Below, one piece after another: positions 7,085-43,024 of a stretch of 43,243 bases of DNA; position 1 is the first letter of the stretch, and the number at the start of each line of letters is the position of its first letter. A model generated the notes under the pieces. That model did no database searches. It saw only the letters and a list, made by a program, of their open reading frames with translations, and was not told the DNA's origin. The stretch covers positions 1 to 43,243 of the IMG/VR virus record IMGVR_UViG_3300032243_001205, one strand, 5' to 3'. Position numbers and translations under genes: made by a program. Source of the stretch: a virus. Its lineage: Duplodnaviria; Caudoviricetes.

Positions 7085-7462
7085 ATGGCATACTCTGACA
7101 AGGTAATTGATCACTACGAAAATCCTCGTAATGTTGGTCGGATGGACATAGACGACACAGTAGGCACTGGTATGGTCGGAGCCCCAGCTTGCGGTGACGT
7201 GATGAAACTACAGATCCGAGTAGAAGATGGGATTATAACAGATGCAAAATTCAAAACATATGGCTGTGGGTCGGCGATCGCTTCAAGCTCACTGGTCACA
7301 GAATGGGTCAAGGGCAAAACGCTGGAGCAGGCTGGCGCAATTAAGAATGCTGAGATTGCAGAGGAACTCGCACTCCCGCCGGTTAAGATCCATTGTAGTA
7401 TCCTTGCGGAAGACGCTATTAAGGCGGCAATAAATGATTACCTTAACAAGCACAGCAGCTAA
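7085..7462 (+). CDS. iscU: Fe-S cluster scaffold protein IscU
   Basis: MAYSDKVIDHYENPRNVG, PACGD, YGCGS, LPPVKIHC. Confidence 0.97.
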   Translation: MAYSDKVIDHYENPRNVGRMDIDDTVGTGMVGAPACGDVMKLQIRVEDGIITDAKFKTYGCGSAIASSSLVTEWVKGKTLEQAGAIKNAEIAEELALPPVKIHCSILAEDAIKAAINDYLNKHSS

Positions 7463-7757
7463 CAAAATCCAAGCCAATCTAGAAAAGCGCGGAGCCGGCA
7501 TAGGCATCTGTGTAGGTGTAAGAACCACTGGTTGCAGCGGCATGGCCTATACCTTGGAATATCTAGATGCACCCTGGCCCAAACATCTGTATAGATTTGA
7601 CAGTAAAGGCACCAGTGTATATGTAGACCCTAAGGATTTGGTCTATCTAGATGGCATGACAATAGACTATGTGCGCCAGGGATTGAATGAAGGCTTTGAA
7701 TTCAACAATCCACAGGCTCGAGATCATTGCGGTTGCGGAGAATCATTTAGAGTATAG
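7434..7757 (+). CDS. iscA: Fe-S cluster assembly A-type carrier IscA (HesB family)
   Basis: MITLT, TTGCSG, IDYV..GL..GF.FNNP, CGCGESF. Confidence 0.95.
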   Translation: MITLTSTAANKIQANLEKRGAGIGICVGVRTTGCSGMAYTLEYLDAPWPKHLYRFDSKGTSVYVDPKDLVYLDGMTIDYVRQGLNEGFEFNNPQARDHCGCGESFRV

Positions 7758-12916: not shown

Positions 12917-13282
12917 ATGAAACTCAAATTACTTATTGTGCTGGCTTTTTTAATCCCGGCATTTGGATTTGCACAGAGCACACAAAACAACGGTAAGGCC
13001 GCTGTAAAAGACAATGGCAATACCAGCCTCAGAGGCTCGTATGGCAACACTGATCTACAAGGTTCTTATGGCAACACTGATATCAAGGGATCTTATGGCA
13101 ACACTGATCTACAAGGCTCTTATGGCAACACCGATATCAAGGGCTCATATGGCAATACCAATCTACAAGGATCTTACGGCAATACTACTAATACCGTTAG
13201 TGTTGGCGGTAATGGAAGCAACGGCAATGCACCAACAAAAATAATAATCAATCTTACTATAGAGATGCCGGCTACCAAATAA
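12917..13282 (+). CDS. Secreted protein with 9-aa GSYGNT(D/N)(L/I)(Q/K) tandem repeats
   Basis: AAGGA RBS; signal peptide MKLKLLIVLAFLIPAFGFA; five full and one partial repeat. Confidence 0.8.
   Translation: MKLKLLIVLAFLIPAFGFAQSTQNNGKAAVKDNGNTSLRGSYGNTDLQGSYGNTDIKGSYGNTDLQGSYGNTDIKGSYGNTNLQGSYGNTTNTVSVGGNGSNGNAPTKIIINLTIEMPATK
13034..13186 (+). repeat. 27-bp coding tandem repeat (about 5.7 units) with 54-bp higher-order alternation
   Basis: Units start 13034, 13061, 13088, 13115, 13142, 13169; endings alternate CTACAA/ATCAAG. Confidence 0.92.
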
Positions 13283-25480: not shown

Positions 25481-26155
25481 ATGAATCAAGCAGTCTATCG
25501 TGCGGCAGATGCCGTTAACTCAGCCATGTTGCGTGTTTATAACCACATGGCCTTGGCCATTGCAACTTCGGGCATTGTGAGCCTATTGGTCAGTTCAAGT
25601 CCGGCACTCATGCAGTTCTTGTTTACTGGCGTCATGCAGTGGATCGTGATTTTTGCTCCCTTAGCCTTTGTGCTATTCCTAGGATTCAAGATCCGTGACA
25701 TGAGTGTGGGCACAGCCAGACTGATGTTATACCTATTTGCGGCTGTGATGGGCTTGAGCTTTAGCACTATCTTTGTTGTTTATAACCTAGGATCTATCGT
25801 GAGTGCGTTCATGGGTGCGGCCATCCTGTTTGTGACCATGAGCGGCTATGGATACTTTACTCGTCGCAGTCTTGAAAGTGTAGGACAGTTCATGTTCATT
25901 GGCCTGATTGCTATTGTAATCGCATCCATCGTCAATATCTTTATTGGAAGTAGTGTGGCAACCATGGTCATATCGGCCTTGGCCGTCATCATCTTCTTGG
26001 GCCTAACTGCCTACGATACACAACAGATCCGCCAAATGGTATCAGTAGTTGAGCCAGATAGCAATGCTGAAATTGTCGGCGCCTTGACCTTATACATGGA
26101 CTTTATCAACTTGTTTTTGAACTTGCTACAGTTGTTTGGCGGCCGTAAGGATTGA
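25481..26155 (+). CDS. Bax inhibitor-1/YccA family membrane protein
   Basis: RVYNHM, about 7 TM helices, LTAYDTQ, GALTLYMDFINLFLNLL. Confidence 0.93.
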   Translation: MNQAVYRAADAVNSAMLRVYNHMALAIATSGIVSLLVSSSPALMQFLFTGVMQWIVIFAPLAFVLFLGFKIRDMSVGTARLMLYLFAAVMGLSFSTIFVVYNLGSIVSAFMGAAILFVTMSGYGYFTRRSLESVGQFMFIGLIAIVIASIVNIFIGSSVATMVISALAVIIFLGLTAYDTQQIRQMVSVVEPDSNAEIVGALTLYMDFINLFLNLLQLFGGRKD

Positions 26156-29511: not shown

Positions 29512-30711
29512 ATGACCACTGCCATTGACCATTGCAGTTTTTGTGACAAGCACAAAGATCGTGTGGGTAAACTGATTGTGAGTCACAAGGTGGCCATCTG
29601 CAATGAATGTGTGGATCTTTGTGGCGGTCTACTAAAAGATACCCGAACACCTGCCAAATCAAAATCTAATCCTGTGGCTGTTCCTGATCCTCGTGACATA
29701 AGAGATTATCTTGACCAACACGTGATCGGTCAAGACACAGCCAAGATTGTGCTTAGTGTGGCCATTGCCAATCACTACAAACGCATCAGTCGCAATGACA
29801 ATACCATAGACAAGGCCAACATACTAATGATCGGACCCACCGGCACAGGTAAAACTCTCCTGGCCAAAACCGTGGCACGATACCTGGATGTTCCAATTGT
29901 GATAGCTGATGCGACCTGTTTAACCGAAGCTGGTTATGTGGGCGACGATGTAGAAAGCATGATTGCCAGATTGTACACTGCCGCTGATGGTGATGTAGAG
30001 CGTTGCCAACGTGGTATTGTGTTCCTAGACGAAATAGACAAAATCGCCCGTAAAAGCGAAAGTGCCACAGTCACCAGAGATGTATCAGGCGAAGGAGTAC
30101 AACAGGCCTTACTCAAATTGATCGAAGGTACTCGTTGTCGTATCCCAACGCAGGGCGCCAAAAAAACCTCTGGTGCCGAAACTGTGGAAATTGACACTAC
30201 AAACATATTGTTTATTGCCGGCGGTGCATTTGTGGGCATGGATCGCATTTTACAAAATCGTGTACAAGGTACTGCCATGGGATTCGGAGCACATATCGCA
30301 TCAGGCGACGGCACCACGGCCGAGCCAGTGACTCCGGATGACCTGGTACGCTATGGGATGATTCCTGAATTTGTGGGTCGCTTCAGCAGTTATGTAAATT
30401 TACATGCCTTGACCAAGAGTCAGTTGATCAGCATATTGACCGAGGTAACAGGCAATTTTGTGGGTCAGTATAAATGGTTATTTGACCAAGACAGCGTGGA
30501 ATTACAATTTGATCCCGAAAGCCTGGATCTCATAGCCGAGCGCACACTAAAAACCCATACAGGAGCTCGTGGACTACACAGCGAGCTTGAGCGGGTGTTA
30601 TTACCACACATGTTTGATCTGCCTAGATATCGCAAGCAACAGATACTACAGGTCACAATCAATAAAACCCAGGTAAATACTCCTAAGACCTTGATAGAAG
30701 AGAACGCATGA
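29512..30711 (+). CDS. clpX: ATP-dependent Clp protease ATP-binding subunit ClpX
   Basis: CSFC...CNEC zinc finger, [35 protein letters not shown] loop, TGARGL. Confidence 0.95.
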
Positions 30712-30929
30712 GAGAGTACAAAAATTCAGTCAAAGTGCCCGACGGTAATGTAGAAAAAGCCCTTAGAAAATTCAAGAAAAAAATTCAAGAGTCTGGCCTG
30801 TTGGACGAACTACGGTCCAGAGAAACCTACGAAAAGCCCACCACTGAGCGCAAGCGTAAAAAAGGTGCTGCTCGAGCACGTTGGCGCAAACAACTACGCA
30901 GTCAGCAACTGCCCAAGAAATTGTTCTAA
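30708..30929 (+). CDS. rpsU: 30S ribosomal protein bS21
   Basis: [11 protein letters not shown]...[23 protein letters not shown]; TAAATA at 30674-30679. Confidence 0.93.
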
Positions 30930-30933
30930 TTTC

Positions 30934-30964
30934 TTGACAACTTCCTAAAAATCTGTTATAAATA
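30934..30964 (+). promoter_or_regulatory. Composite promoter: TTGACA-17-(TGn)TATAAA overlapping perfect late TATAAATA
   Basis: -35 30934-30939; TATAAATA 30957-30964; followed by hairpin 30969-30993. Confidence 0.75.
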
Positions 30965-31027
30965 ATATTGTAGATGCCCGGGTGGGGTCTACACAGTCAT
31001 ATTTTGCTTAATAAAGGAGAAAATAAA

Positions 31028-31474
31028 ATGACAAACTTTGAAATTCGCACGGTCGATTTACCTGCATTCGTAAACCAAATCCACAAGCACAGTATCGGTT
31101 TTGATCACATGTTTGATCAGCTGAACCGTACCTTGGGAACCAGCCGTGATAACTATCCCCCACATAATCTGGTCAAACTTGATGACACACACTATGCCAT
31201 TGAGATTGCTGTGGCTGGATTTGCAGAAAGTGAGATTAATGTAGAACTCAAGAAAAATCTGCTGACAGTCACTGGGGAACAACTAGCAGTCAATGAAGTT
31301 GAGTATTTGCATAAAGGTATCAGCAATAGAGATTTTACTCGTACTTTTCCTCTAGCCGAGCACATTGAAGTAGTCGGTGCTCGAGTAAAAAATGGTATTC
31401 TTACCATTAACCTGGAGCAGATTGTTCCTGAGGAAATGAAGCCTAAAACTATTGCAATCACCTACGAATTGTAA
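31028..31474 (+). CDS. Small heat shock protein Hsp20/IbpA family
   Basis: IGFDHMF, NYPPHN, IEIAVAGF, YLHKGIS.R.F.R.F.L, NGILTI, KTIAI; AAGGAG RBS, ATG 31028. Confidence 0.95.
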   Translation: MTNFEIRTVDLPAFVNQIHKHSIGFDHMFDQLNRTLGTSRDNYPPHNLVKLDDTHYAIEIAVAGFAESEINVELKKNLLTVTGEQLAVNEVEYLHKGISNRDFTRTFPLAEHIEVVGARVKNGILTINLEQIVPEEMKPKTIAITYEL

Positions 31475-31533
31475 TATAATATGTAAATACAGTAGGGGGC
31501 AAGGTGCTCCCTACTAGACTAAAGGGACTCAAA

Positions 31534-31842
31534 ATGTCGCACGAAGGCACAATTACAAAAATACAAATCAATCAAGGTCTCACTGAGCCACCCATGTTCA
31601 AGATCATTTATCTCAATGATAATGCTACTCCCATGGAGTTCGTGATCGAAACCCTGGTGGATTCGTTTAACTACAACGAGCAGACTGCTGTTGAAATTAC
31701 TCATGACATTCACGAAGCTGGGTCAGCTGTGGTTGCTGTGTTGCCTTATGAAATAGCCGAACAAAAAGGCATAGAAGTTACCGTACAAGCTCGCAACAAC
31801 AACTATCCCCTGCAGATCAAGCTCGAGCCCGAAACAGTTTAA
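31534..31842 (+). CDS. clpS: N-end rule adaptor ClpS
   Basis: PPMFKIIYLNDNATPMEFV, IHEAGSAVV, YEIAEQK, YPL; TAAATA 31484-31489 and hairpin 31491-31515 upstream. Confidence 0.93.
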   Translation: MSHEGTITKIQINQGLTEPPMFKIIYLNDNATPMEFVIETLVDSFNYNEQTAVEITHDIHEAGSAVVAVLPYEIAEQKGIEVTVQARNNNYPLQIKLEPETV

Positions 31843-32630
31843 AAATCAATTTCAATACGGCGAGGGTAGTAGGCAGGTTGGCACCATGGAGTATTGCCAC
31901 GTCCTCTAGGGTTACTAACGTATTGTATTCCGCCTAGATTTTGATCCACGGGTCTATGGTAATGCCCAAAGCACCACATTTTGATCTTGTTTTCGGTATC
32001 TTCATCAATGGCCCTGGTAATATGGCTGTTGCCCATGCCGTTGAATCGCCAGGTATCCACTAGATCTGGATCATGTGCAATTATCCAAGGCGCCGGTACA
32101 GTATGACTAAGCATGACTATGGCGCCTACTTCCTTGTGGGTCTGTAGTTTACGCACACTGTTGATCATGTAGGCCGCATCATTGTAGGCCACATCCAGGA
32201 TTCCTTGGGCAGCTGAACTGCTGATACCAAAATGATGTTGTATATAACTCATGCTTTGGTCCACGTCAGCTAAAGAATCAAAATCATAGGTCCACCAAGC
32301 ATTGGTTCCCAATATGGCCACACCGTTGACTATGACCACATTATCCTGCATATAGACCACATTGGATATCTGTGAAATTTCTTGTTCTAATTCACAGTAA
32401 CTGTCGGTCAAATCTTCAAGATAATTCTTGTGTTCTTCATTGCCGTCTACATAAAACACGCCCCCAGGGTAGCACTGCCCCAGATGTGAAAGCACATCTA
32501 TTAACAAACTGCGGTCACGGGCCACATCTCCCAAGACCACACAATACGGGGCTGTGGCCTGCGCGGTCCAATCAAAGGTGTCCCAGGTTTCTACGTGCAG
32601 GTCAGAAATTAAATCAAATGCAAAAGTCAT
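31839..32630 (-). CDS. Calcineurin-like metallophosphoesterase
   Basis: ISDLH, LGD, GNEEH, SHTVP, FGHYH, SNPRG; TAAATA on minus strand at 32637-32642. Confidence 0.88.
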   Translation of the reverse strand: MTFAFDLISDLHVETWDTFDWTAQATAPYCVVLGDVARDRSLLIDVLSHLGQCYPGGVFYVDGNEEHKNYLEDLTDSYCELEQEISQISNVVYMQDNVVIVNGVAILGTNAWWTYDFDSLADVDQSMSYIQHHFGISSSAAQGILDVAYNDAAYMINSVRKLQTHKEVGAIVMLSHTVPAPWIIAHDPDLVDTWRFNGMGNSHITRAIDEDTENKIKMWCFGHYHRPVDQNLGGIQYVSNPRGRGNTPWCQPAYYPRRIEIDF

Positions 32631-32656
32631 GATAACTATTTACAAGGAATTCAACC

Positions 32657-33007
32657 ATGAACATAATATTTAAAACCAATATCGAAGCTGTGGATCAAAA
32701 GTACACAGTGCTGGATTTAGACACATTTAGCCTGCCTGATGGGTCACAGCACACAGCCTGTTGTGTGATCGAACATATACCCATTGACGAATTACCGGCC
32801 ACAGAAAGCCTTAAAGAACTACATGCCAATCTGATCGCCAACTACGGACAACGCAACTGGAACTACTGCGAACAGGCCATAGAACAACTACAGGGTCGAT
32901 GGGGTGGAGACATGGATTCATTTTATACAGAATTAAAGATGCGTATTGACCGGTTGAAAACCATGAATCTCAATGATGCCTGGAGCCCTGTGATACCAAA
33001 AACCTAA
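32657..33007 (+). CDS. Stand-alone homologue of the C-terminal (TPR-like) region of the CHASE2 cyclase
   Basis: By-eye alignment: VLDLDTF/VFELDCI, LHANLIANYGQRNW/EHRDFLKLYYGGDW, MDSFYTELKMRI/MEKYYDAMADRL, DAWSPVI/DSWSGIF. Confidence 0.6.
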   Translation: MNIIFKTNIEAVDQKYTVLDLDTFSLPDGSQHTACCVIEHIPIDELPATESLKELHANLIANYGQRNWNYCEQAIEQLQGRWGGDMDSFYTELKMRIDRLKTMNLNDAWSPVIPKT

Positions 33008-33046
33008 ATTAGATAAATACCCACATAACAATAACAAGGAGCAAAT

Positions 33047-33328
33047 GTGGGAGAGATTTTCAAAATTATCGGTGATCTTGGATTCCCTGTGGCAGCAGCA
33101 CTTGCAGGTGGATACTTCGTATTCTTAACTATTAAATTATTACTAGCTGGTGTATTGAGTGCTATCAAAAGCATGGCTGGAATCATTACTGCCCTAGATA
33201 ATCGCGTTAAAACAATGAATCATGACGTTATCCGCATTGATACTGTTGTGAGTAACGCTTTGGGATTACGTCCAGATGTAGAGCGTATCAGTCGTGCCGA
33301 CGGGAAAAATGACGCAAGGCGCGATTGA
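33047..33328 (+). CDS. Single-TM coiled-coil membrane protein (GFP motif), paralogue A
   Basis: GTG start, AAGGAG RBS, TAAATA 33014-33019; LGFPVAAALAGGYFVF. Confidence 0.8.
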   Translation: MGEIFKIIGDLGFPVAAALAGGYFVFLTIKLLLAGVLSAIKSMAGIITALDNRVKTMNHDVIRIDTVVSNALGLRPDVERISRADGKNDARRD

Positions 33329-33516
33329 TGAAATACTACGACTACGAGTGGGACCTAGAACCCAACAGAATCCTATTAGATGAAGAACTTGATGTAGATG
33401 CATTGGGTTGGCAGGGCGGCGACTATTTCAAAGTTACCAACATCAATGGTCGTACCATGTTGGTCAAAGTTGATGCCTTAGAAAAGTTTTTGAGAGATGG
33501 AGTGGGCAATGAATAA
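33328..33516 (+). CDS. Hypothetical protein, AbrB/SpoVT-like LGWxxGD pattern
   Basis: TGATG-coupled; ALGWQGGDYF. Confidence 0.65.
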   Translation: MKYYDYEWDLEPNRILLDEELDVDALGWQGGDYFKVTNINGRTMLVKVDALEKFLRDGVGNE

Positions 33517-33649
33517 ATGGAAACCGGGCGATCTGCCCACTAACATAGAAGATTACGGTTATGATCATGCAATTTGGACTGATATAGATTTAGCCAAATT
33601 TGCCTTGATAGCATTTGCAGCAGGCCTTATTGTAGGATGGATCGTGTAA
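33509..33649 (+). CDS. Small C-terminally anchored membrane peptide (46 aa, not in ORF track)
   Basis: MNKWKPGD...FALIAFAAGLIVGWIV; GGAG RBS; TAATG-coupled to next gene. Confidence 0.6.
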   Translation: MNKWKPGDLPTNIEDYGYDHAIWTDIDLAKFALIAFAAGLIVGWIV

Positions 33650-33963
33650 TGGGTGGAATAGCGGACGCAATATCAAAATATGGGTTTCCAATTGTCATGG
33701 CAGTTGGAATGGGTTTTATAATTCATTATGTATGGACCTGGGCAACAAAAGAAGTCAAACCGGTGATCAACGATGCCAACGCAGTTCTAATAGCACTTAT
33801 TGATCGTATCAGGATGTTGGACAACGATCTTATCAGACTTAATCAAAAAGTAAACACTGTACTGCATCTACGTGGCAAAACAATCGAACACGAGCGTGTC
33901 GAAGCTGAAAAAGCCATCAACAAAACTGCTGATGATCAAGAAGCCGCAGGCGGAAACGGCTAA
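33649..33963 (+). CDS. Single-TM coiled-coil membrane protein (GFP motif), paralogue B
   Basis: YGFPIVMAVGMGFII; LIDRIRMLDNDLIRL similar to LDNRVKTMNHDVIRI of paralogue A. Confidence 0.8.
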   Translation: MGGIADAISKYGFPIVMAVGMGFIIHYVWTWATKEVKPVINDANAVLIALIDRIRMLDNDLIRLNQKVNTVLHLRGKTIEHERVEAEKAINKTADDQEAAGGNG

Positions 33964-34000
33964 GATTAAACCGACCACTTAACGATACCCTAAATCCTAT

Positions 34001-34006
34001 TAAATA
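34001..34006 (+). promoter_or_regulatory. Late promoter core TAAATA heading the curli cassette
   Basis: ATTAAATA then AGGAG RBS and ATG 34024. Confidence 0.6.
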
Positions 34007-34023
34007 ATAATAGGAGCTAGAGT

Positions 34024-34506
34024 ATGCAAAAAATCTATAAAAAGTACTCAGTTATGGTAACCCTATGGTTACCTATTGCTGTTTATGCTACACCAATAAA
34101 TGATTACTCATTCAAGAGTCCCAGCTTCAACGGCTCTGGTTATAGCAGTCATGTGTTGACCATAGAAAATCAAGAAAATACTCGTCGTGCTCAAGTGGCC
34201 AAAGACATACAGGCCGCCTTGGACAAAGCGGCGGCCGCTGCCAATAATACCAACATTGCCAAGTTTATGAACAACTTGGAAAGCCGTATCTATGCCCAGA
34301 TCAGTCAGAACTTGGCCACGGCCATGTTTGCCAACAACAACTGTTCGGGCAGTAATAGTGTAGGGTGTAGTGGAACATTGAACTTTGAAGGCAATACTAT
34401 ATTCTGGAACAAAGATAGTACCAACATCTATCTTCAAGTAACTGATACCACTGGTAATCAAACTACGGTTACAGTTCCCCTAGGATCATTCCAATTTGGA
34501 AACTAA
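34024..34506 (+). CDS. csgF: Curli assembly component CsgF-like protein
   Basis: Signal peptide; YSFKSPSFNG..SSHVLTIENQE resembles the CsgG-binding N-terminus; LESRIYAQIS; LQVTDTTGNQTTVTVP; adjacent to csgG. Confidence 0.8.
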   Translation: MQKIYKKYSVMVTLWLPIAVYATPINDYSFKSPSFNGSGYSSHVLTIENQENTRRAQVAKDIQAALDKAAAAANNTNIAKFMNNLESRIYAQISQNLATAMFANNNCSGSNSVGCSGTLNFEGNTIFWNKDSTNIYLQVTDTTGNQTTVTVPLGSFQFGN

Positions 34507-35481
34507 ATGAAACAACTATTAGTCATCCTCTCCTTGTTGATCTTAAGTGGGTGTGCTATGACTCAGAAGATGGGCTACGAGTACAAACCCGAGGTGGCTG
34601 CCAATAAGATGCAAAAAGAATTTGATACTTTACCTGCACCCAATGGTAAAAAGGTCACCGTAGCAGTGTATGGCTTTGCTGACAAGACAGGACAACGCAA
34701 ACCAACTCCGGGTATAGCCAGCCTATCCACGGCAGTCACACAGGGTGGTGAAGTGTTCTTGATCAAGGCCCTACAAGATGTTGGCCGTGGTACATGGTTT
34801 GATGTGGTCGAGCGTGTGAACATTGATGCCTTGACCAAAGAGCGCACCATCATCCGCCAGATGCGCGAAGCCTATGAAGGCAAAGACGCCAAACCCTTGA
34901 TGCCACTCATGTTTGCCGGCATCATCATGGATGGTGGCATTATTGGCTATGACTCGGGATCGGAGTCAGGCGGCGCCGCATACAGATTCCTGGGCATTGG
35001 CCCACAAACACAGTATTCAAAAGACACTGTGACCGTGAGTCTGCGAGCTGTGAGTGTAAACACTGGCAAGGTGCTTGCAGCCATAACTGTAACTAAAATT
35101 GTTTACAGCACCGCAGATTCGGTAGCAGTATTAAAGTATATCAATAACAAAAATATTGGTAGTCAACTATTTGGTAATGCTGATAATGTTGCTGGTGTAG
35201 CCGGATCGATGTTTGAAGCAGAGTCAGGTCTGACAGTTAATGAACCTGGCACACTAGCAGTCAAGGCAACAGTAGAAGCCGCGGTAGTTGAATTGATCAA
35301 GGAAGGAGAACGCAAGGGTGTATGGGATTTCAAACAACCTGAAGCCGTTGTCCAACCAGCCACTATAGTAGCACCAGTGGCAGTAGCACCAGCAGTAGAA
35401 GCGAAAAAAGAAGCACTACCGGAAACGGTTAAGAAGTCAATCCCAAAGGACCACAAAGAGTCTAAGGAAAACAAAAAATGA
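34507..35481 (+). CDS. csgG: Curli secretion channel lipoprotein CsgG
   Basis: Lipobox LSG-C; VAVYGFADKTGQRKP, STAVTQG, WFDVVER, LTKERTIIR, GGIIGYD, DTVTVSLRAV..TGKVL. Confidence 0.93.
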   Translation: MKQLLVILSLLILSGCAMTQKMGYEYKPEVAANKMQKEFDTLPAPNGKKVTVAVYGFADKTGQRKPTPGIASLSTAVTQGGEVFLIKALQDVGRGTWFDVVERVNIDALTKERTIIRQMREAYEGKDAKPLMPLMFAGIIMDGGIIGYDSGSESGGAAYRFLGIGPQTQYSKDTVTVSLRAVSVNTGKVLAAITVTKIVYSTADSVAVLKYINNKNIGSQLFGNADNVAGVAGSMFEAESGLTVNEPGTLAVKATVEAAVVELIKEGERKGVWDFKQPEAVVQPATIVAPVAVAPAVEAKKEALPETVKKSIPKDHKESKENKK

Positions 35482-36293
35482 AACAGAGTATAACAGGCGC
35501 TGGCAGTTTGTCGAGAAAATTAACTGCAATTCTATTATCAGTTGTGATGCTGGTAACGGGCGTGTCATTGGCCGCTGACAATAGTATCTATATTGATCAG
35601 ACCGGTGATAATGCTACCATTGCGATAACTCAAGATGGAACCACAAACGTAGTGCGTGGTATACAAGGCACGGGCACTGGCGACACCACCCCGGCTAAAA
35701 TCTATGGTGATGGCAACGAAGTCAGTGTAACACAAACTGGAGCCAATAATGTGCTGAATCTAGGCATAAATCGAGGCACAGGCTCGGGTACTGCTGGCAA
35801 TACCGTAACCTATGAGGTTTCTGGCAACAATGCCACGGCGACCTTAAACCTAAACAATGCCAACACCGGTACAGCTGCCAGTAACACAGTTGGCATTACA
35901 CAAAGTGGCAACTACGCAACATCAGATTTAAGCCTCGTTGGTGATAGTAACACTATAAGTGTAACCACAGCCGGCGGTGCCAACAATGCGTATACCTCAA
36001 CCGTGACTGGAGATAGCAACACACAAAGTATTAGTTTAACCGGTGGTGGTAGTAACAGTGCAACGGTTACGCAATCGGGTAATAGCAACTCTGCTGTTAT
36101 AACCGCTGTGGGTGCTAGTAATACATTCACTGTTTCACAAAGTGATGGCAGCCATACAACTTCGATCGGTGTTGCTGGCAGTAGTAATACCTTTGGTGTG
36201 ACTCAGCAAGGAACTGCCGGAGCTAATATTTTTAACTATACCAGCACCAGCGGAAGTGGAAATACTGTGACTATTAATCAGAATGCTCGGTAA
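35478..36293 (+). CDS. Curlin-repeat secreted protein (CsgA/CsgB-like)
   Basis: Signal peptide; repeated N-x5-Q-x-G-x1-2-N units (NSIYIDQTGDN, NEVSVTQTGANN, NSATVTQSGNSN, NTFGVTQQG); Gly/Asn/Thr/Ser-rich. Confidence 0.8.
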   Translation: MKQSITGAGSLSRKLTAILLSVVMLVTGVSLAADNSIYIDQTGDNATIAITQDGTTNVVRGIQGTGTGDTTPAKIYGDGNEVSVTQTGANNVLNLGINRGTGSGTAGNTVTYEVSGNNATATLNLNNANTGTAASNTVGITQSGNYATSDLSLVGDSNTISVTTAGGANNAYTSTVTGDSNTQSISLTGGGSNSATVTQSGNSNSAVITAVGASNTFTVSQSDGSHTTSIGVAGSSNTFGVTQQGTAGANIFNYTSTSGSGNTVTINQNAR

Positions 36294-36298
36294 GGATT

Positions 36299-37420
36299 AT
36301 GCAAATGCATAGTGGAAGAAACCTGTGCAAGCTGACACTTTCTGCACTCTTAGTGAGTATCTACACGAATTGTGACGCTGCGATTGGAACCGTTACAGAA
36401 CAAGTGAATCTGCCCCCTTCGATACAACGATCGAAAACGACTCTGACCGGAACCAAAGGAACTGGAGTGGAAATGTTGGACGAGGTGAAAACCACCCGCG
36501 GTAAGGCCGGTATTACCTTTAGTGACAACACCCAGGTCCAAGTCAATGAAAACAGTCGTTTAGTCATTGATGATTTTGTGTATGATCCCAAGTCTACCAA
36601 AGGTGGTCGACTGGCAGTAAACATTGCCTCAGGAACTGTGAGATATGCATCAGGACAAATCGCAAAAAATTCCCCTCATATTGTGGTTGTTAATACTCCT
36701 ACCGCTACTATTGGTGTTAGGGGGACCGATTTTACTGCTACTGTTGACGAGCTGGGAGCCAGCACTGTTATACTTTTGCCTAGTTGTCCTTTTGGCTGGC
36801 GTGATGTTGAGCGTGATTGCAAGACCGGAGAAATCTCAGTGACCACTGATATTGGATCGGTCGTTTTAAATCGACCATTTCAGGCCACCAAGGTTGAAAC
36901 CCGTGGCACAATACCAACCAAACCGGTCATACTGAATCTAAATCCTGACGCGATTAACAATATGTTGATTGTGGCACCACCTAGAGAACTTAGAGAAGAC
37001 AGAGATACTAGAATATCAGTCAAGGGCGCACTTGACGTAAATTTCCTTAAAGAAACTGGCCTGGTCAATGCGTTTGATGCACAAGAACCTGCTTTCAAAG
37101 ACACACTGAGAACTAACTTATTAGATCAAGATTTTCTGACCAATGTATTAGATCTTATCAACGCACAAATGGCCGCACAATTAAATCTATTGAACACAAC
37201 CAGTAGTGGTCTATTGCCAGACTATAGTGCTACTACTGGAGTTATTGCCTCGGTTGACGATAACACAGTTACTCTAAGTAGAGATGATGGTAGTAATATA
37301 CAAAGTGTGACCGTGCCTAAAAATCAAAATACAACCATATACCAGATTCAAGGTAGTGTAGAAATTCGCAACCGTGTTAATACCGGTGGATCTACTGTCA
37401 TAACATTAAAGCAGAATTGA
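36299..37420 (+). CDS. Secreted FecR-domain protein
   Basis: Signal peptide then AIGTV; ITFSDNTQVQVNENSRLVIDDFVYDP, GTVRYASG, VNTPTATIGVRGTDF. Confidence 0.88.
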   Translation: MQMHSGRNLCKLTLSALLVSIYTNCDAAIGTVTEQVNLPPSIQRSKTTLTGTKGTGVEMLDEVKTTRGKAGITFSDNTQVQVNENSRLVIDDFVYDPKSTKGGRLAVNIASGTVRYASGQIAKNSPHIVVVNTPTATIGVRGTDFTATVDELGASTVILLPSCPFGWRDVERDCKTGEISVTTDIGSVVLNRPFQATKVETRGTIPTKPVILNLNPDAINNMLIVAPPRELREDRDTRISVKGALDVNFLKETGLVNAFDAQEPAFKDTLRTNLLDQDFLTNVLDLINAQMAAQLNLLNTTSSGLLPDYSATTGVIASVDDNTVTLSRDDGSNIQSVTVPKNQNTTIYQIQGSVEIRNRVNTGGSTVITLKQN

Positions 37421-37421
37421 T

Positions 37422-38108
37422 ATGAACGATTGGGATAAAGGTAACTTAAAATTTGTTGCTTTTGTAGTTGGACTTGCCACAATCTGGCTATTGTTGACTA
37501 TCTTTTTTATTCCCAATCGAGCACACGCTCAAGGTATAATAGGAATGAATCTTGATGGCACGGCCATTTATGCCCCCACTGGTAGCAATACAATTTACAT
37601 AGAACAGATTGGCAGTTATAATTCTATTACAGTCAATCAAGATGGAACGGGTCATGCGGCAGTCGTTACCATGGGCTTGGCGTCTGCTGTTGATAACACG
37701 ACTGTCGCCATCGACCAGAAAGATTCTGGCGCAAAACGGGCCACAGTGGATATTCCTGGTGGCTTCAACAACAGTGTCAGTATACTTCAACAGGGTGCCG
37801 GCAATCATACCGCGTCCATCACAAATCTAAATGGCATTGCCAATAGCGTTACAATCAATCAAGGCGGTGCTGGCAAGCATACCATGGAAATCGTTGGAGC
37901 CGCTGGATCACAGAACAACGGCAATACTATCACAGCTACACAAACAGGAGGTGCGGGCACAGACAAAACTTTCAATCTTTGGTTGAATGGGTGGAATACC
38001 AACGTCACCATTGAACAAACAAATCCTACCACAGCAGGACAAGCCGGAATGAATATCACGTGCGGCAACAGTTGTGGAACACAACCTTGGAGTTACATCA
38101 GCAGATAA
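37422..38108 (+). CDS. Second curlin-repeat secreted protein
   Basis: Long hydrophobic leader ending AHA; NTIYIEQIGSYN, NSITVNQDG, NSVSILQQGAGNH, NSVTINQGG, NTITATQTGG; C-terminal CGNSC. Confidence 0.78.
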   Translation: MNDWDKGNLKFVAFVVGLATIWLLLTIFFIPNRAHAQGIIGMNLDGTAIYAPTGSNTIYIEQIGSYNSITVNQDGTGHAAVVTMGLASAVDNTTVAIDQKDSGAKRATVDIPGGFNNSVSILQQGAGNHTASITNLNGIANSVTINQGGAGKHTMEIVGAAGSQNNGNTITATQTGGAGTDKTFNLWLNGWNTNVTIEQTNPTTAGQAGMNITCGNSCGTQPWSYISR

Positions 38109-38174
38109 CATGTCAACAACATAGGTGAGCAGTAACCATTATCTGATAAGAGTGCGAAGCACCGGGAGATAACG

Positions 38175-38405
38175 ATGATACAATTTAATTTATTAAAAGC
38201 AAAACACATCGACATGAAGTACATCGATGAAGCCAGTATGTATATCACTGCCAACGGCGGCGAGTTCCATATTGGCAAGCGGCAGATAGAGTTTTATGTT
38301 CCTGAAGCCTATTCGGACTTTGTGGCCATGAAGTTTCCGTTCCTACAGGTGGAACAGTATGTGTGGGAAGAAACAGAGGATACCTTCTGGCCTCCTGAGT
38401 CATAG
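38175..38405 (+). CDS. Hypothetical protein (76 aa)
   Basis: GGAG RBS; isolated ORF between curlin 2 and cyclase. Confidence 0.7.
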   Translation: MIQFNLLKAKHIDMKYIDEASMYITANGGEFHIGKRQIEFYVPEAYSDFVAMKFPFLQVEQYVWEETEDTFWPPES

Positions 38406-38455
38406 CTCCAGGGTGTATGCGTAGTTAATTATTACAACCCTGCCTGTAAATATAT

Positions 38456-38537
38456 ATGTCAGCATTATAACTACAACGAGCTGACCGGGCTGTACCTTTG
38501 GAGCCATTACTTTTTGGAGCAATGGCTCTTTTTTTTT
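38456..38537 (+). ncRNA. Candidate late small RNA (about 80 nt)
   Basis: TAAATA 38447-38452, hairpin GTCAGC/GCTGAC (38458-38485), then terminator; only a 4-codon ORF inside. Confidence 0.45.
38501..38537 (+). terminator. Rho-independent terminator
   Basis: GAGCCATT...AATGGCTC stem followed by T9. Confidence 0.88.
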
Positions 38538-38550
38538 CGGTAAATATTAC

Positions 38551-40563
38551 ATGTTGAAAAAAATCTTAATCACACCATGGACAGCTCTACTGACCTTGTT
38601 TCTAGTGGTTGGATTGCGAGTAGCCGATCCTGCATTTGTTGAAAGTGTTCGACTGCGTTACTTTGACACATTGGTAACCAGTCGACCCACAGAAGTCATT
38701 GGAGTCAGCACAGTAAACATAGATGAAAAGGCCTTAGAACGTTATGGACAATTCCCTTTCAGTCGCGATATCTACGCTACCATTATTCGAGACCTGTATC
38801 AACGCAATGCAGGTCTTGTTGTGTTTAACGTTCTTACTCCTGATCGTGATCGCATGGGCCAGGATGCAGCCTACATCCAAGCACTACGCCAGTACCCGAC
38901 GGTACTTCCTAACATTGGATCACAGACTTCACGCAATACTGCGCGAGTTCCGGGATCGGTTGTAATTGGTCCTTATGCTCGGCAGTTCGTTGAGTACCCC
39001 GGCATCATTGCCAACCAGCCTGGTATAGAATCAGCCGCGGTCGGTGTTGGCCTAGTAAACACCTTGCCCGAAGTCGACGGAGTTGTGCGCCGCATGCCCA
39101 TGGTAGCCGACAGCCAAGGTCGGCTGTATCCCAGTCTTGCCATGGAGACTCTACGTGTGGCCGGTGGCGATACCACCTTCCAAGTCAAGATCAATGAAAA
39201 CGGCGTTGAGAAAATGCGTATTCCAAAATTTGGACCCATTGTGACCGACAGTCTAAGTCGCATCTGGATTGATTGGAGCCTTGTGCCAGAACAGTATAGT
39301 TTGACCAATTTACCAAAAAACTTTGAAGGCGATATTGTTATTGTCGGAGTGTCGGCGCAAGGACTGGCCAATCCTGTGGCCACCAGTCGTGGCGAAATGT
39401 TGCCACAAGATTTACAAGCAAGTGTATTGGGTACTGTGATTGCCAACAGAGATCGTCCGGCAATCACTAGACCAGACTGGGCCGATGGTGCTGAAATCAT
39501 AGCCCTAGCGGTATTGGCAGTTGTATTGATATTCTTAACGAGGTGGACCTATGTCGGCATTATTTCTAGCATTATTGTTATTGGCTCTATTATACCTATT
39601 TGTTCGTATGTTTACGGCAGTTATTCTTGGCTCGTCGATGCAACTATTCCTGTGGGCGGGCTTGTTCTTGTTATGCTTCATGCTTATGGAGTCAAGTTTG
39701 TATCAGAGTTTCTCGCTCGTCAACAAATAAAACGACAGTTTGGAAGTTATGTTAATCCTACCATTGTAGAACGCTTGCAAAAGGATCCTGGCTTGATCAA
39801 GTTAGGTGGAGAACGCAAGGAACTCAGTATTGTCATGACCGACCTACGTGGATTTACCACACTTGGTGAAAGCTTTGGCGACGATGTCGAAGGTCTAACA
39901 CAAATCATGAACGACTACATGACAGCCCTGAGCGTACCAGTGCTTGAAAATGATGGTACATTGATCAAGTTCATTGGCGATGCGTCATTGCATGTACACG
40001 GCGCACCCTTGGATGATGTCAATCATGCCAAGACTGCTGTTCGTACAGCACTGGCCATGATCCAAGCAATCGAAGCGTTTAACGTAGGCCTGGTTGCCAG
40101 CGGTCGTCCTCCTGTGGGCATGGGTGCCGGTGTCAACACCGGCGAAACACTCATAGGTAACATTGGCGCCAAAACCAAGTTTGGCTACGATGTCTTGGGC
40201 GATAGCGTAAGTACTGCGGCTAGACTGGAAGGGCAAACCAAGGCCTATGGAGTCCTGCTGATCATAGGTCCACGCACAGCTGAACTTGTACGTGACGAAA
40301 TTCCTGTGTTTGAACTAGATTGTATAGCAGTCAAAGGCAAGACCATTGGCTTAAATATCTATGCAGTAGAACAAGAAACCCAAGAACATAGAGATTTCCT
40401 AAAACTGTACTATGGTGGTGATTGGAAGCGAGCGTCAACCCTAATCCCCAGATGTATAAACGCTAATCCCAACATGGAGAAGTATTATGACGCAATGGCA
40501 GATAGATTGGCTGAAGGCAAACCCGATTCCTGGTCTGGAATATTTAGAGCTACTAGTAAATAG
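38551..40563 (+). CDS. CHASE2-domain membrane class III adenylate/guanylate cyclase
   Basis: N-terminal TM, CHASE2 (VNIDEKALERYGQFPFSR, DGVVRRMP, PSLAMETLR), 3 TMs, TDLRGFT, IKFIGDA, GVNTG, YDVLGDSVSTAARLEG, VKGK; TAAATA at 38541-38546. Confidence 0.95.
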   Translation: MLKKILITPWTALLTLFLVVGLRVADPAFVESVRLRYFDTLVTSRPTEVIGVSTVNIDEKALERYGQFPFSRDIYATIIRDLYQRNAGLVVFNVLTPDRDRMGQDAAYIQALRQYPTVLPNIGSQTSRNTARVPGSVVIGPYARQFVEYPGIIANQPGIESAAVGVGLVNTLPEVDGVVRRMPMVADSQGRLYPSLAMETLRVAGGDTTFQVKINENGVEKMRIPKFGPIVTDSLSRIWIDWSLVPEQYSLTNLPKNFEGDIVIVGVSAQGLANPVATSRGEMLPQDLQASVLGTVIANRDRPAITRPDWADGAEIIALAVLAVVLIFLTRWTYVGIISSIIVIGSIIPICSYVYGSYSWLVDATIPVGGLVLVMLHAYGVKFVSEFLARQQIKRQFGSYVNPTIVERLQKDPGLIKLGGERKELSIVMTDLRGFTTLGESFGDDVEGLTQIMNDYMTALSVPVLENDGTLIKFIGDASLHVHGAPLDDVNHAKTAVRTALAMIQAIEAFNVGLVASGRPPVGMGAGVNTGETLIGNIGAKTKFGYDVLGDSVSTAARLEGQTKAYGVLLIIGPRTAELVRDEIPVFELDCIAVKGKTIGLNIYAVEQETQEHRDFLKLYYGGDWKRASTLIPRCINANPNMEKYYDAMADRLAEGKPDSWSGIFRATSK

Positions 40564-41430: not shown

Positions 41431-42462
41431 ATGACTACACTAAAACGTATCGGTTTCTGTTGCAAATGGCTCAATGATCCGTCCGAATGCGGCGGCATGA
41501 AGGTCAATGCAGTGGATCGTGATCTCAACGGTCGTAGCACCACCATGCGTTGGTTGCGTGAGCATCCTGAGGAGGCCGAACAGCGCCAGTGGGACATCAT
41601 GAATCACAACACCCGTGCCGCTGTGAAGCTGATCGAGCGTGTGGCCACCTTGCCGCCTGAACGGCGCATGGTTCGCCTGGGCAGTGAAATGCTACAAGGC
41701 TATACCGAACCCTCATGGAAGGCCTGGTGGCAACAGAAGCATGTGCAGGATCACTTGGAGCGGATTTTTGCTCCTATTGGTGAAACTGCCCGTCGCCTGG
41801 ATGTTAGACTCAGTTTTCATCCTGGACAGTTTTGTGTGTTGGCGTCGGAGAATCCCGGCATTGTAGAACGAAGCTTAGAGGAGTTTGAATATCATGCGAG
41901 TATGGCAGAGTGGATGGGTTACGGACAAACCTTTCAGGACTTCAAAATTAACGTCCACATCTCAGGTAAAAGAGGTCCAGAGGGTCTCCGCGACGCTTAC
42001 CGACGATTATCCTCCACCGCCCGCAGTTGTATTACAATTGAAAACGAAGAAAACTCATGGGGGTTAAATGATTGTCTTACCATTTCTGATCTTGTGCCTA
42101 TTGTGCTGGACGTTCATCATTTCTGGATCCGCGAAGGAGCCTACATCCTACCTGGAGACGACCGTGTTAAGAGAGTTGTTGATAGTTGGCGCGGTGTGCG
42201 TCCTGCTATGCATTATAGCGTCAGCCGGGAAGATATACTTGTGGGACATGATGCACACCAAGCCCCCGACTATGCGGCGCTTTTGGTAGAAGGTCATAAG
42301 AAACAGAAATTAAGAGCACACTCGGACTTTTACTGGAATCAAGCAACCACCGACTGGGCCTTGACATTCTGGGATCAATTTGACCTCCAATGCGAATCAA
42401 AATCTAAGAATCTTGGATCTGAACAGGTTTACAATCGTGCTGTAGAGCTTGGGCTCGTTTGA
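41431..42462 (+). CDS. uvsE: UV damage endonuclease UvsE/UVDE
   Basis: RIGFCC, RLSFHPGQFCVLAS, INVHISG, TIENEE, LDVHH, MHYS, RAHSD, ESKSKN. Confidence 0.93.
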   Translation: MTTLKRIGFCCKWLNDPSECGGMKVNAVDRDLNGRSTTMRWLREHPEEAEQRQWDIMNHNTRAAVKLIERVATLPPERRMVRLGSEMLQGYTEPSWKAWWQQKHVQDHLERIFAPIGETARRLDVRLSFHPGQFCVLASENPGIVERSLEEFEYHASMAEWMGYGQTFQDFKINVHISGKRGPEGLRDAYRRLSSTARSCITIENEENSWGLNDCLTISDLVPIVLDVHHFWIREGAYILPGDDRVKRVVDSWRGVRPAMHYSVSREDILVGHDAHQAPDYAALLVEGHKKQKLRAHSDFYWNQATTDWALTFWDQFDLQCESKSKNLGSEQVYNRAVELGLV

Positions 42463-43024
42463 CAGCCCAATACTCTTTCATTGCTTTACTTTTTTTATCC
42501 AAAGTTTCTTGAGAGTATTTGCGTCCCTTGCTTGCTTTACCTAATGCACTTATTTGTTCTTTTCTTTTAGTATTAGTGGCCCAATTTTGTTTAGCCGACT
42601 CGTTCCAGGCCGCTTGATGTTCCTTGCTACGAGGTTTAGGAACACCCTTACAAGACTTACTTAAATTTTGTTTATGAGCATCAGTTCTGGGTGATTTTTT
42701 TCTACCAAGTTGTTGTTGGCGAAATAACTCTTTTCTTTCTTCGGTATGATTGCCGCCGCCACCAGTTTCTGGAATCTGATTTGCCCACCCAGAATCTTTG
42801 GCAACATTCCAAAGGTCACTATAATATCGACCCCATTGAGATAATTCTTGATTGGTTTGACACTCTTGTATAATTTCAGTATCGTAATCAGCACCGTGTT
42901 CTTTCAGATGTGCTTTCCATATGCCGCCGGATCCGTGATAAGCATGTGGATCGGTTGAAGTAGTTTTGCCGAGATATTTTAGACCTGTTTTACGATGGGT
43001 CTTAACATACAAATAAATAGTCAT
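42404..43024 (-). mobile_element. Free-standing GIY-YIG (Seg-like) homing endonuclease with NUMOD3-like repeats
   Basis: IYLYVKTH..TGLKYLGKT, YHGSG, WAN..PETG; HTEERKELFR, GRKYSQETLDKKSKA; opposite strand, AT-richer, overlaps uvsE 3' end. Confidence 0.8.

Follow-up and report, generated by a model that had tools for sequence, protein, structure and literature searches.

An intact copy of the viral curli secretion, FecR and CHASE2 cyclase module in a T4-like jumbo phage, with a possible role in trans-envelope signalling

Podo- and myoviruses among the marine pelagiphages carry a viral type VIII secretion system (T8SS), a module of genes for CsgF, CsgG, CsgA/B, FecR, CsgA/B and adenylate cyclase that is preceded by one or two small 'histidine kinase' genes and is expressed in metatranscriptomes (PMC9599517, 2022). 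The pore genes had been reported earlier, and sibling capture or lysis timing was proposed for them (PMC7029224, PMC9004378). A gene block of this kind was analysed here in a 43,243-nucleotide stretch of viral DNA (IMG/VR virus record IMGVR_UViG_3300032243_001205, positions 1 to 43,243; Duplodnaviria, Caudoviricetes), the whole of which is referred to as the window. The block is an intact further copy of the published module and not a new system; the initial annotation had taken it to be undescribed beyond csgF and csgG, a claim that falls because PMC9599517 had already reported this gene set and order. In the reading preferred here, to which about an even chance is assigned, curlin export is coupled to an envelope sensor making cyclic adenosine monophosphate (cAMP) for a host receptor. 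The record of the window comprises 43 kb only, and genome-wide absences were taken from relatives.

All named genes of the block were intact in the open reading frame (ORF) list of the window and lie on the plus strand. The genes for CsgF (34024..34506, 160 aa), the CsgG outer-membrane lipoprotein pore (34507..35481, 324 aa), curlin 1 (35478..36293, 271 aa), an exported FecR-fold protein (as predicted; 36299..37420, 373 aa) and curlin 2 (37422..38108, 228 aa) are contiguous, csgF and csgG abutting, csgG and curlin 1 overlapping by 4 nt, and gaps of 5 nt and 1 nt separating curlin 1 from FecR and FecR from curlin 2, respectively. The gene for a CHASE2 class III nucleotide cyclase (38551..40563, 670 aa) follows, so that ORF coordinates and Pfam agree with the gene order given in the initial annotation. 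The HMM (hidden Markov model) checks proposed there all gave matches, namely CsgF (PF10614, E 2e-11, 44.6 bits against a cut-off of 25.8), CsgG (PF03783, E 1.5e-41, above cut-off), the curlin repeat in curlin 1 (Curlin_rpt PF07012, E 2.9e-17), FecR (PF04773, E 5.3e-12), CHASE2 (E 1.3e-36) and Guanylate_cyc (E 2.3e-16). A single ORF of 76 aa (38175..38405, plus strand), not mentioned in the earlier description, lies between the csgF block and the cyclase; its kind was not assigned, and it follows curlin 2 in a subset of relatives.

TAAATA, which we take from T4 biology to be a late-promoter core, occurs on the plus strand at 34001..34006 in front of csgF, at 38447 and 38541 in front of the cyclase and at 33014 in front of the first of two small membrane protein genes. 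The motif was not enriched over the window as a whole (31 matches against a chance mean of 25, with 11 of 100 shuffles reaching 31), and 20 of its 25 plus-strand matches fell within 120 nt 5' of listed gene starts, zones that make up 14% of the window. Among relatives it was found 5' of csgF in 60/68, of the first membrane gene in 56/63 and of the cyclase in 35/67, as against 0/67 for csgG and 303/3840 (about 8%) for random segments. The cores noted previously at csgF and the cyclase are thus positional in the window and kept in relatives.

When the same HMMs were applied to the pelagiphages HTVC008M (KC465899) and Melnitz (MZ577097), the same eight genes were labelled in the same order as here (two small paralogues, csgF, csgG, curlin, FecR, curlin and cyclase), and the pelagiphage T8SS likewise has no CsgE. 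The window's cyclase is 35-40% and its CsgG 40-41% identical to theirs, and its carrier belongs to a jumbo family of 329-364 kb, whereas the pelagiphage module is carried by a marine myophage of 140 kb or by a podophage. A paralogue of the cyclase tail stands beside the window's block and was undetected in the retrieved HTVC008M and Melnitz regions. CHASE2 goes unmentioned in the available text of PMC9599517, which calls the small genes histidine kinases. With bacterial curli systems (csgBAC-csgDEFG of E. coli and the alphaproteobacterial systems) the window shares a lipobox CsgG, CsgF and a CsgA-like solenoid curlin; unlike them, it has an operon that encloses a FecR-fold gene and is followed by a CHASE2 cyclase.

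The alignment of CsgF showed a conserved N-terminal motif (F-K-S-P-x-F-x-G-x-G-Y). Residues 1-277 of CsgG matched solved CsgG 3x2r in a PDB sequence search (E 1.9e-40), its lipobox Cys16 was present in 69 of 71 aligned copies, and its C-terminal tail is variable and acidic/basic. Curlin 1 contains seven N-x-hydrophobic-x-hydrophobic-x-Q half repeats and was predicted to form a beta-solenoid (predicted local distance difference test score, pLDDT, 86.5), for which the top fold match was Pontibacter CsgA 8c50 (Z 22.3, root-mean-square deviation (rmsd) 8.5, 215 aligned), the next match having a Z of 16.1. Curlin 2 scored 19.1 bits for PF07012, under the cut-off of 20.7, and gave a CsgB match of 1.3e-3; it ranges from 155 to 759 aa in relatives, is absent in 10/80 loci and is a variable, optional partner. 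It is extremely unlikely that the curlin-like proteins are fibres or spikes of the virion and not CsgG cargo. The late-type promoter and the beta-helical tailspikes among the lower fold matches of curlin 1 (Z 11-13.6) would suit such a role; against it, the N-termini of both curlins are hydrophobic and signal-like, CsgA is the best fold match by far, the divergence of curlin 1 follows that of csgG (rho 0.80), and the same genes occur in bacterial chromosomal contexts.

The model of the FecR protein (pLDDT 80) consists of a signal-like helix, a PupR-like domain (residues 28-230) and a low-confidence, poorly ordered linker (about 230-290), after which come one more helix and a C-terminal domain of six strands with T-x-I-T-I-x-Q at its end. 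In the fold search, the FecR domain matched PupR 6ovm with a Z of 15.3 (rmsd 2.8, 136 aligned). According to both model and alignment, the fold starts at about residue 28, straight after the signal-like helix, and neither a cytoplasmic anti-sigma domain nor a membrane anchor precedes it; the protein is accordingly without an anti-sigma part, and 'iron regulator' is therefore used as a domain label only. Model and sequence together predict an exported protein with a cleavable-type N-terminus. The periplasmic fold is shared with the FecR/PupR anti-sigma factors, and the conserved Gly-Thr resembles the self-cleavage site of FecR; unlike these factors, the window's protein has no cytoplasmic domain and no internal anchor, carries a long linker and the six-strand domain in place of their STN subdomain, and has no sigma factor or TonB transducer gene beside it within the block.

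The Gly-Thr pair lies at R141-G142-T143, and [VI]RGT was found in 94/94 phage copies and in 6/6 copies from cultured phages or bacteria. FecR of E. coli cleaves itself at G181-T182 and signals once the two pieces part (PMC12036975). Gly142-Thr143 is a candidate self-cleavage site of the present protein, its equivalence to G181-T182 being judged from its position within that Pfam domain. Cleavage is given here as a prediction, since G181/T182 have been called non-conserved among anti-sigma factors (PMC7186176) and since the FecR alignment, when searched against PDB sequences, returned no relative through which the Gly-Thr might be placed on a solved anti-sigma structure. A curlin repeat in the C-terminal domain was considered and rejected (profile comparison probability 1.2%, E 0.043; best curlin HMM E about 0.03); its likeness to curlin is limited to the terminal T-x-I-T-I-x-Q, and searches with the full model returned only beta-sandwiches as fold matches for this domain (Z about 3.5). 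Longer fused FecR forms were also set aside, the seven weak matches all being confined to the FecR domain and giving weak evidence.

The cyclase has a transmembrane segment, the CHASE2 domain, a transmembrane region, the catalytic domain and a helical tail. With the residue register set against CyaB, D431, K473, D477 and R558 were invariant in 41/41 aligned cyclases, and position 547 was D, T or S, with D547 in the window. D431 and D477 are the metal-binding Asp pair, K473 is the ATP-type Lys and R558 the transition-state Arg; the residues make up an ATP-type set, with cAMP as the predicted product. Prediction of a complex between CHASE2 (24-312) and FecR (28-373), both entered as alignments, scored 0.00 twice, which is evidence neither way.

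CHASE2 cyclases are activated via the outer-membrane receptor NsrA in Sinorhizobium (PMC13001267, PMC7529298), and clusters of a CHASE2 cyclase with FecR-domain, tetratricopeptide repeat (TPR) and phosphodiesterase genes are described in Campylobacterota (PMC9239204). The NsrA-CyaK/CyaD1/D2-Clr system and the Campylobacterota clusters resemble the window in having a CHASE2 cyclase, an outer-membrane component, a FecR-domain gene nearby and a cAMP output, which in the window is predicted; their outer-membrane part is a TPR/beta-barrel receptor, whereas that of the window is a curli pore and fibre. In curli biology, subunits are exported by Sec, CsgG forms a ring with CsgF, and curlins are secreted unfolded. 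Under the coupled reading, the probably late-expressed unit would build a CsgG-CsgF pore in this way, with Sec export, a lipoprotein CsgG ring joined by CsgF, and unfolded curlins secreted and stacking as beta-solenoids. The FecR protein would stay in the periplasm, its N-domain facing CHASE2 and its long linker reaching toward the pore or fibre, and this FecR-fold adaptor would pass the state of the surface structure to the inner-membrane CHASE2 cyclase, with whose sensor half the two small membrane proteins may act. The cAMP produced would act late in infection on a CRP/FNR-type regulator or another target of the host. Signalling from adaptor to cyclase is proposed by analogy with NsrA-CyaK and the CHASE2-FecR-TPR clusters. 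The trans-envelope signalling suggested in the initial annotation is plausible in view of the kept gene linkage, the adjacency of FecR and CHASE2 genes in bacteria and the Sinorhizobium precedent; its further proposals, neighbouring cells or superinfecting virions as the input and lysis timing or aggregation as the output, found no support here.

Linkage was determined from loci anchored on different genes. Of 48 viral loci anchored on CsgG, which were not dereplicated, all 48 had csgF; curlin and FecR were each found in 36/36 loci that extend at least 2.2 kb downstream, and those extending at least 9 kb had the cyclase in 18/18. Cyclase-anchored loci were taken from the best 80 of 149 relatives, and in the 38 with full flanks a curli or FecR gene stood no more than 10 kb away in 33 cases and the membrane pair was present in 37. 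Five cyclase loci had neither curli nor FecR genes nearby, of which four were searched whole and had csgG farther along the contig in every case, the fifth being L072; in a sixth cyclase record, a 23-kb fragment also searched whole, csgG was not found. Anchoring on the membrane pair (best 80 of 592) gave the cyclase within 10 kb in 40/41 full-flank loci and some module gene in 41/41. Independent assortment of the curli genes and the cyclase/FecR genes, for which a synteny comparison had been suggested earlier, was therefore not seen.

Shared descent was evaluated by distance correlations (rho) over 40 dereplicated phage loci. The csgF, csgG and curlin 1 genes and both FecR domains co-track at 0.66-0.80. 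The CHASE2 domain correlated with the membrane pair at 0.53 and 0.58 (the latter for B; A against B, 0.92), with the FecR N-domain at 0.41, with the FecR C-domain at 0.13 and with csgF at 0.08, and the catalytic domain followed none of the others, not even the CHASE2 domain of the same protein (0.04). The neighbouring clpS gene tracked all block genes weakly (at most 0.21). When segments of the cyclase were compared in 34 loci, those inside residues 1-430 gave 0.37-0.65 with the pair, 0.23-0.36 with the FecR N-domain and 0.00-0.16 with the FecR C-domain, and those from residue 401 on gave at most 0.16 with everything, placing a break near residue 400. In 26/34 loci the catalytic end of the cyclase is the one closer to the pair, and simple linkage therefore fails to explain its tracking of the sensor half. 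These data provide a lead, at the level of sequence comparison, that catalytic domains may have been exchanged and the sensor half kept with the pair and, more loosely, with the FecR domain.

Several observations weigh against coupling. FecR correlated with csgF, csgG and curlin 1 at 0.68-0.78 and with CHASE2 at 0.41 by identity and 0.19 by tree distance; because it tracks the secretion genes far above CHASE2, it may serve secretion and not sensing. The distance correlations ignore non-independence, the permutation test was lenient, and shared descent or recombination could be their source. CsgE (PF10627) was found in 0/5 complete relatives, with the E. coli positive control matched, and alphaproteobacterial and viral T8SS are likewise described without it (PMC9599517). 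Position 554 of the cyclase is Ser in 32/41 aligned copies, the window included, and Asn in 9/41, among them HTVC008M and four bacterial copies, the two variants being scattered over loci; with Ser in place of the usual catalytic Asn, activity may be low or altered, and active cyclases without that Asn have been reported (PMC4886424). Five near-complete relatives encode no cyclic nucleotide-binding domain (0/5) and no Crp-type regulator, and any receptor would therefore be the host's. Signal perception in S. meliloti did not require smc02177, a FecR-domain gene that lies beside cyaD1 (PMC5498481), Melnitz-infected cells did not clump (PMC9004378), and no functional test of the block was found in the literature.

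Part of this evidence bears on two other accounts. In one, regarded as rather unlikely though deserving serious weight, the functions are uncoupled: curli fibres, with FecR replacing CsgE, would shield the cell or trap hosts, and the cyclase with the membrane pair would raise cAMP on a separate cue and reprogram the host. The tracking of the secretion genes by FecR and the missing CsgE favour such a division, as do a TAAATA core of the cyclase's own in 35/67 relatives, the frequent inversion or displacement of the cyclase by more than 10 kb in relatives, and the aggregation and shielding already proposed (PMC7029224, PMC9599517). Against it, no locus with sufficient flank had one half without the other, the halves form one gene run in four bacterial loci, FecR and CHASE2 genes are repeatedly adjacent in bacteria whose retrieved flanks showed no curli genes, and the lack of clumping in Melnitz infection counts here as well. 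In the other, an ungated CsgG pore would take up nutrients or cofactors and FecR would be an iron-related regulator, as proposed in PMC9599517 and PMC7029224. The missing CsgE gate fits such uptake, which is nevertheless very unlikely, for it leaves the conserved CsgF and curlins unexplained and calls for a regulator where the FecR protein has no cytoplasmic anti-sigma part and a cleavable-type N-terminus. CsgC, CsgD and CsgH were not recognised within the block, no genome-wide search for them being made; the earlier remark that csgE, csgC and csgD were unseen in the window stands and extends, for CsgE, to the five complete relatives.

The two small membrane proteins are encoded upstream of csgF on the plus strand (A, 33047..33328, 93 aa; B, 33637..33963, 108 aa). 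They gave no mutual BLASTP alignment; both nevertheless matched phrog_18771 (1e-31 and 9e-28) and align as one family, as expected from their earlier description as paralogues. Members have a single N-terminal hydrophobic helix, followed in A by a helical tail, and measure about 85-125 aa in the aligned set; the family comprises at least 8000 proteins. HisKA/DHp and HATPase domains were found in 0/42 members at E 0.1, and the pair probably corresponds, by position and paralogy, to the genes published as 'histidine kinases'. PHROG holin family 4898 matched 19/42 members weakly (best E 4.9e-6), and for the copy in the window the match spans residues 7-25, in the hydrophobic helix only; YvrJ matched 1/42 (E 0.0045) and was the nearest named Atlas cluster (0.89). 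These likenesses to holins and YvrJ are taken as leads. Between the paralogues (33325-33649) lie one small ORF of 63 aa and another of 50 aa with a hydrophobic C-terminus, both of which recur there in many relatives.

In a further reading the pair would function in lysis timing; here it would be a holin-like or antiholin unit restrained by the CHASE2 sensor, contact or superinfection would delay or trigger lysis, and cyclase activity would be secondary. Such a function is unlikely. The holin matches and the YvrJ lead speak for it, together with a pair that is phage-specific in the searched data (0/4 bacterial metagenome-assembled genomes (MAGs) holding the rest of the block, these MAGs being incomplete), tracks the sensor half and has a TAAATA core, and with the lysis role proposed for CsgG/F (PMC9004378). 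Against it, the holin match covers the hydrophobic helix alone, no endolysin was recognised beside the block in the window, and the core block is also found in chromosomal settings of bacteria, where it would not serve lysis. A mechanically gated touch sensor, which combines these elements with the FecR Gly-Thr, is likewise unlikely. Here FecR would be self-cleaved at Gly142-Thr143 with its halves non-covalently joined and its C-terminal strands tied to the CsgG pore or the fibre base; a pull on the fibre from an attached cell, particle or virion would part the halves, and CHASE2, the holin-like pair and a swappable cyclase would set the time of lysis, giving a form of lysis inhibition common to marine and freshwater phages.

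Bacterial copies were sought by a FecR scan of 185,579 species genomes, from which the best 80 of 255 relatives were taken. The top group comprised low guanine-cytosine (GC) contigs with a phage-type gene set; such cassettes (L131-L144 except L137 and L139) occur in MAGs labelled Luteolibacter, Polynucleobacter, Bacteroidetes, Pelagibacter and others, are probably viral contamination and could mislead origin analyses. Four loci stand apart, on Caulobacterales MAG contigs (Henriciella and Caulobacteraceae, two each) whose GC content is 0.52-0.57, and are without the membrane pair. Three of the four have csgF, csgG, curlin(s), FecR and CHASE2 cyclase, the fourth contig starting inside curlin, and TonB receptors or metabolic genes flank the block in 3/3 loci scanned. 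A Pycsar-type PycTM effector gene directly 3' of the cyclase in one Caulobacteraceae locus (L137:13518-14111) was rejected as a part of the block, being present in 1/4 bacterial loci and incidental. The block is rare in bacteria and yet not confined to phages, which qualifies the statement of PMC9599517 that T8SS-module genes are absent from bacterial T8SS operons. Trees of bacterial and phage copies were unrooted.

In 301 Caulobacterales genomes the long FecR form was found in the seed genome only, 22 others giving matches in the FecR domain only. When Caulobacterales FecR-domain loci were fetched with 1.5-kb flanks, a CHASE2 or cyclase gene was adjacent in 6/19 and a Crp gene in one (L376), and in 2/3 rhizobial loci FecR faced a CHASE2 cyclase, which bears out the initial annotation's statement that these genes are neighbours in bacteria.

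A free paralogue of the cyclase tail (32657..33007, plus strand) lies upstream of the membrane pair. It was related to cyclase residues 568-666 by profile comparison (probability 98.5%, E 1.6e-15), a likeness that pairwise BLASTP misses, and it is without catalytic residues. Among full-flank loci of this gene (from the best 80 of 346 relatives), clpS was adjacent in 38/38, the phosphoesterase gene in 37/38 and the cassette in just 8/38, and the gene was kept in 5/5 records without cyclase and CsgG (three at least 90% complete). The paralogue noticed in the initial annotation therefore exists, but its membership of the system, as a cassette part or private cyclase regulator, was rejected; it belongs to a clpS-phosphoesterase backbone outside the cassette and marks where the cassette is inserted. 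It may have arisen as a mimic of host cyclases independently of the cassette, or it may be a relic. The phosphoesterase (31839-32630) was likewise rejected as a phosphodiesterase of the module, since it lies between clpS and csgF in 11/68 loci and persists with the tail gene where the cassette is missing. It is a metallophosphoesterase gene divergent from the tail gene (31839-33007 in all) with GNEE at the motif site, where GNH is usual, and the two could form a unit acting on host cyclic-nucleotide signalling. Just 5' of the cassette lies a host-like protein-quality block (29512-31842: clpX, rpsU (bS21), hsp20 and clpS), clpS being the cassette's usual neighbour in this phage family; 3' of the block are genes for a UvdE ultraviolet-damage endonuclease and a convergent homing-endonuclease-like protein (41431-43024).

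The carrier belongs to a T4-like jumbo phage family, five complete relatives with parts of the block measuring 329-364 kb and having a T4-type major capsid protein. In a lake-water run and a freshwater run, relatives at 85% likeness were found in 29/30 and 27/30 bins, respectively. Another public run has near-identical contigs over most of the stretch; it may be the source sample and so does not count as independent. No RNA run was among the sequencing runs listed. The window also carries iscU and iscA (7085-7757; iron-sulphur cluster scaffold genes, the latter presumably iscA by its motif), and its IscU shares about 80% identity with proteins of Ralstonia, Pseudomonas and enterobacteria in a plasmid collection, which weakly suggests a beta- or gammaproteobacterial host. 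Elsewhere in the window, the gene at 12917-13282, inserted with two more host-like genes between the ribonucleotide reductase-like genes, encodes a protein of 121 aa whose N-terminus is signal-like and which contains a 10-residue repeat of the GSYGNTD type in five near-perfect copies, with PHROG matches of low complexity only, and a 224-aa polytopic membrane protein without a PHROG match, presumably resembling the Bax inhibitor-1/YccA family, is encoded at 25481-26155.

With the present analysis the known range of the module comes to include T4-like jumbo phages as well as a few bacterial chromosomes; the analysis also adds small genes without a kinase domain, their tracking of the sensor half, the Gly-Thr of FecR and the exclusion of the tail gene. 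The Gly-Thr offers a single-site handle, and natural controls are available in the copies from Henriciella and Caulobacteraceae, in which the catalytic Asn is present and the pair is missing. Aquatic phages commonly carry the block, at a cost of 6-8 kb; if the coupling is true, it would be a phage-encoded signalling chain spanning both membranes of the host.

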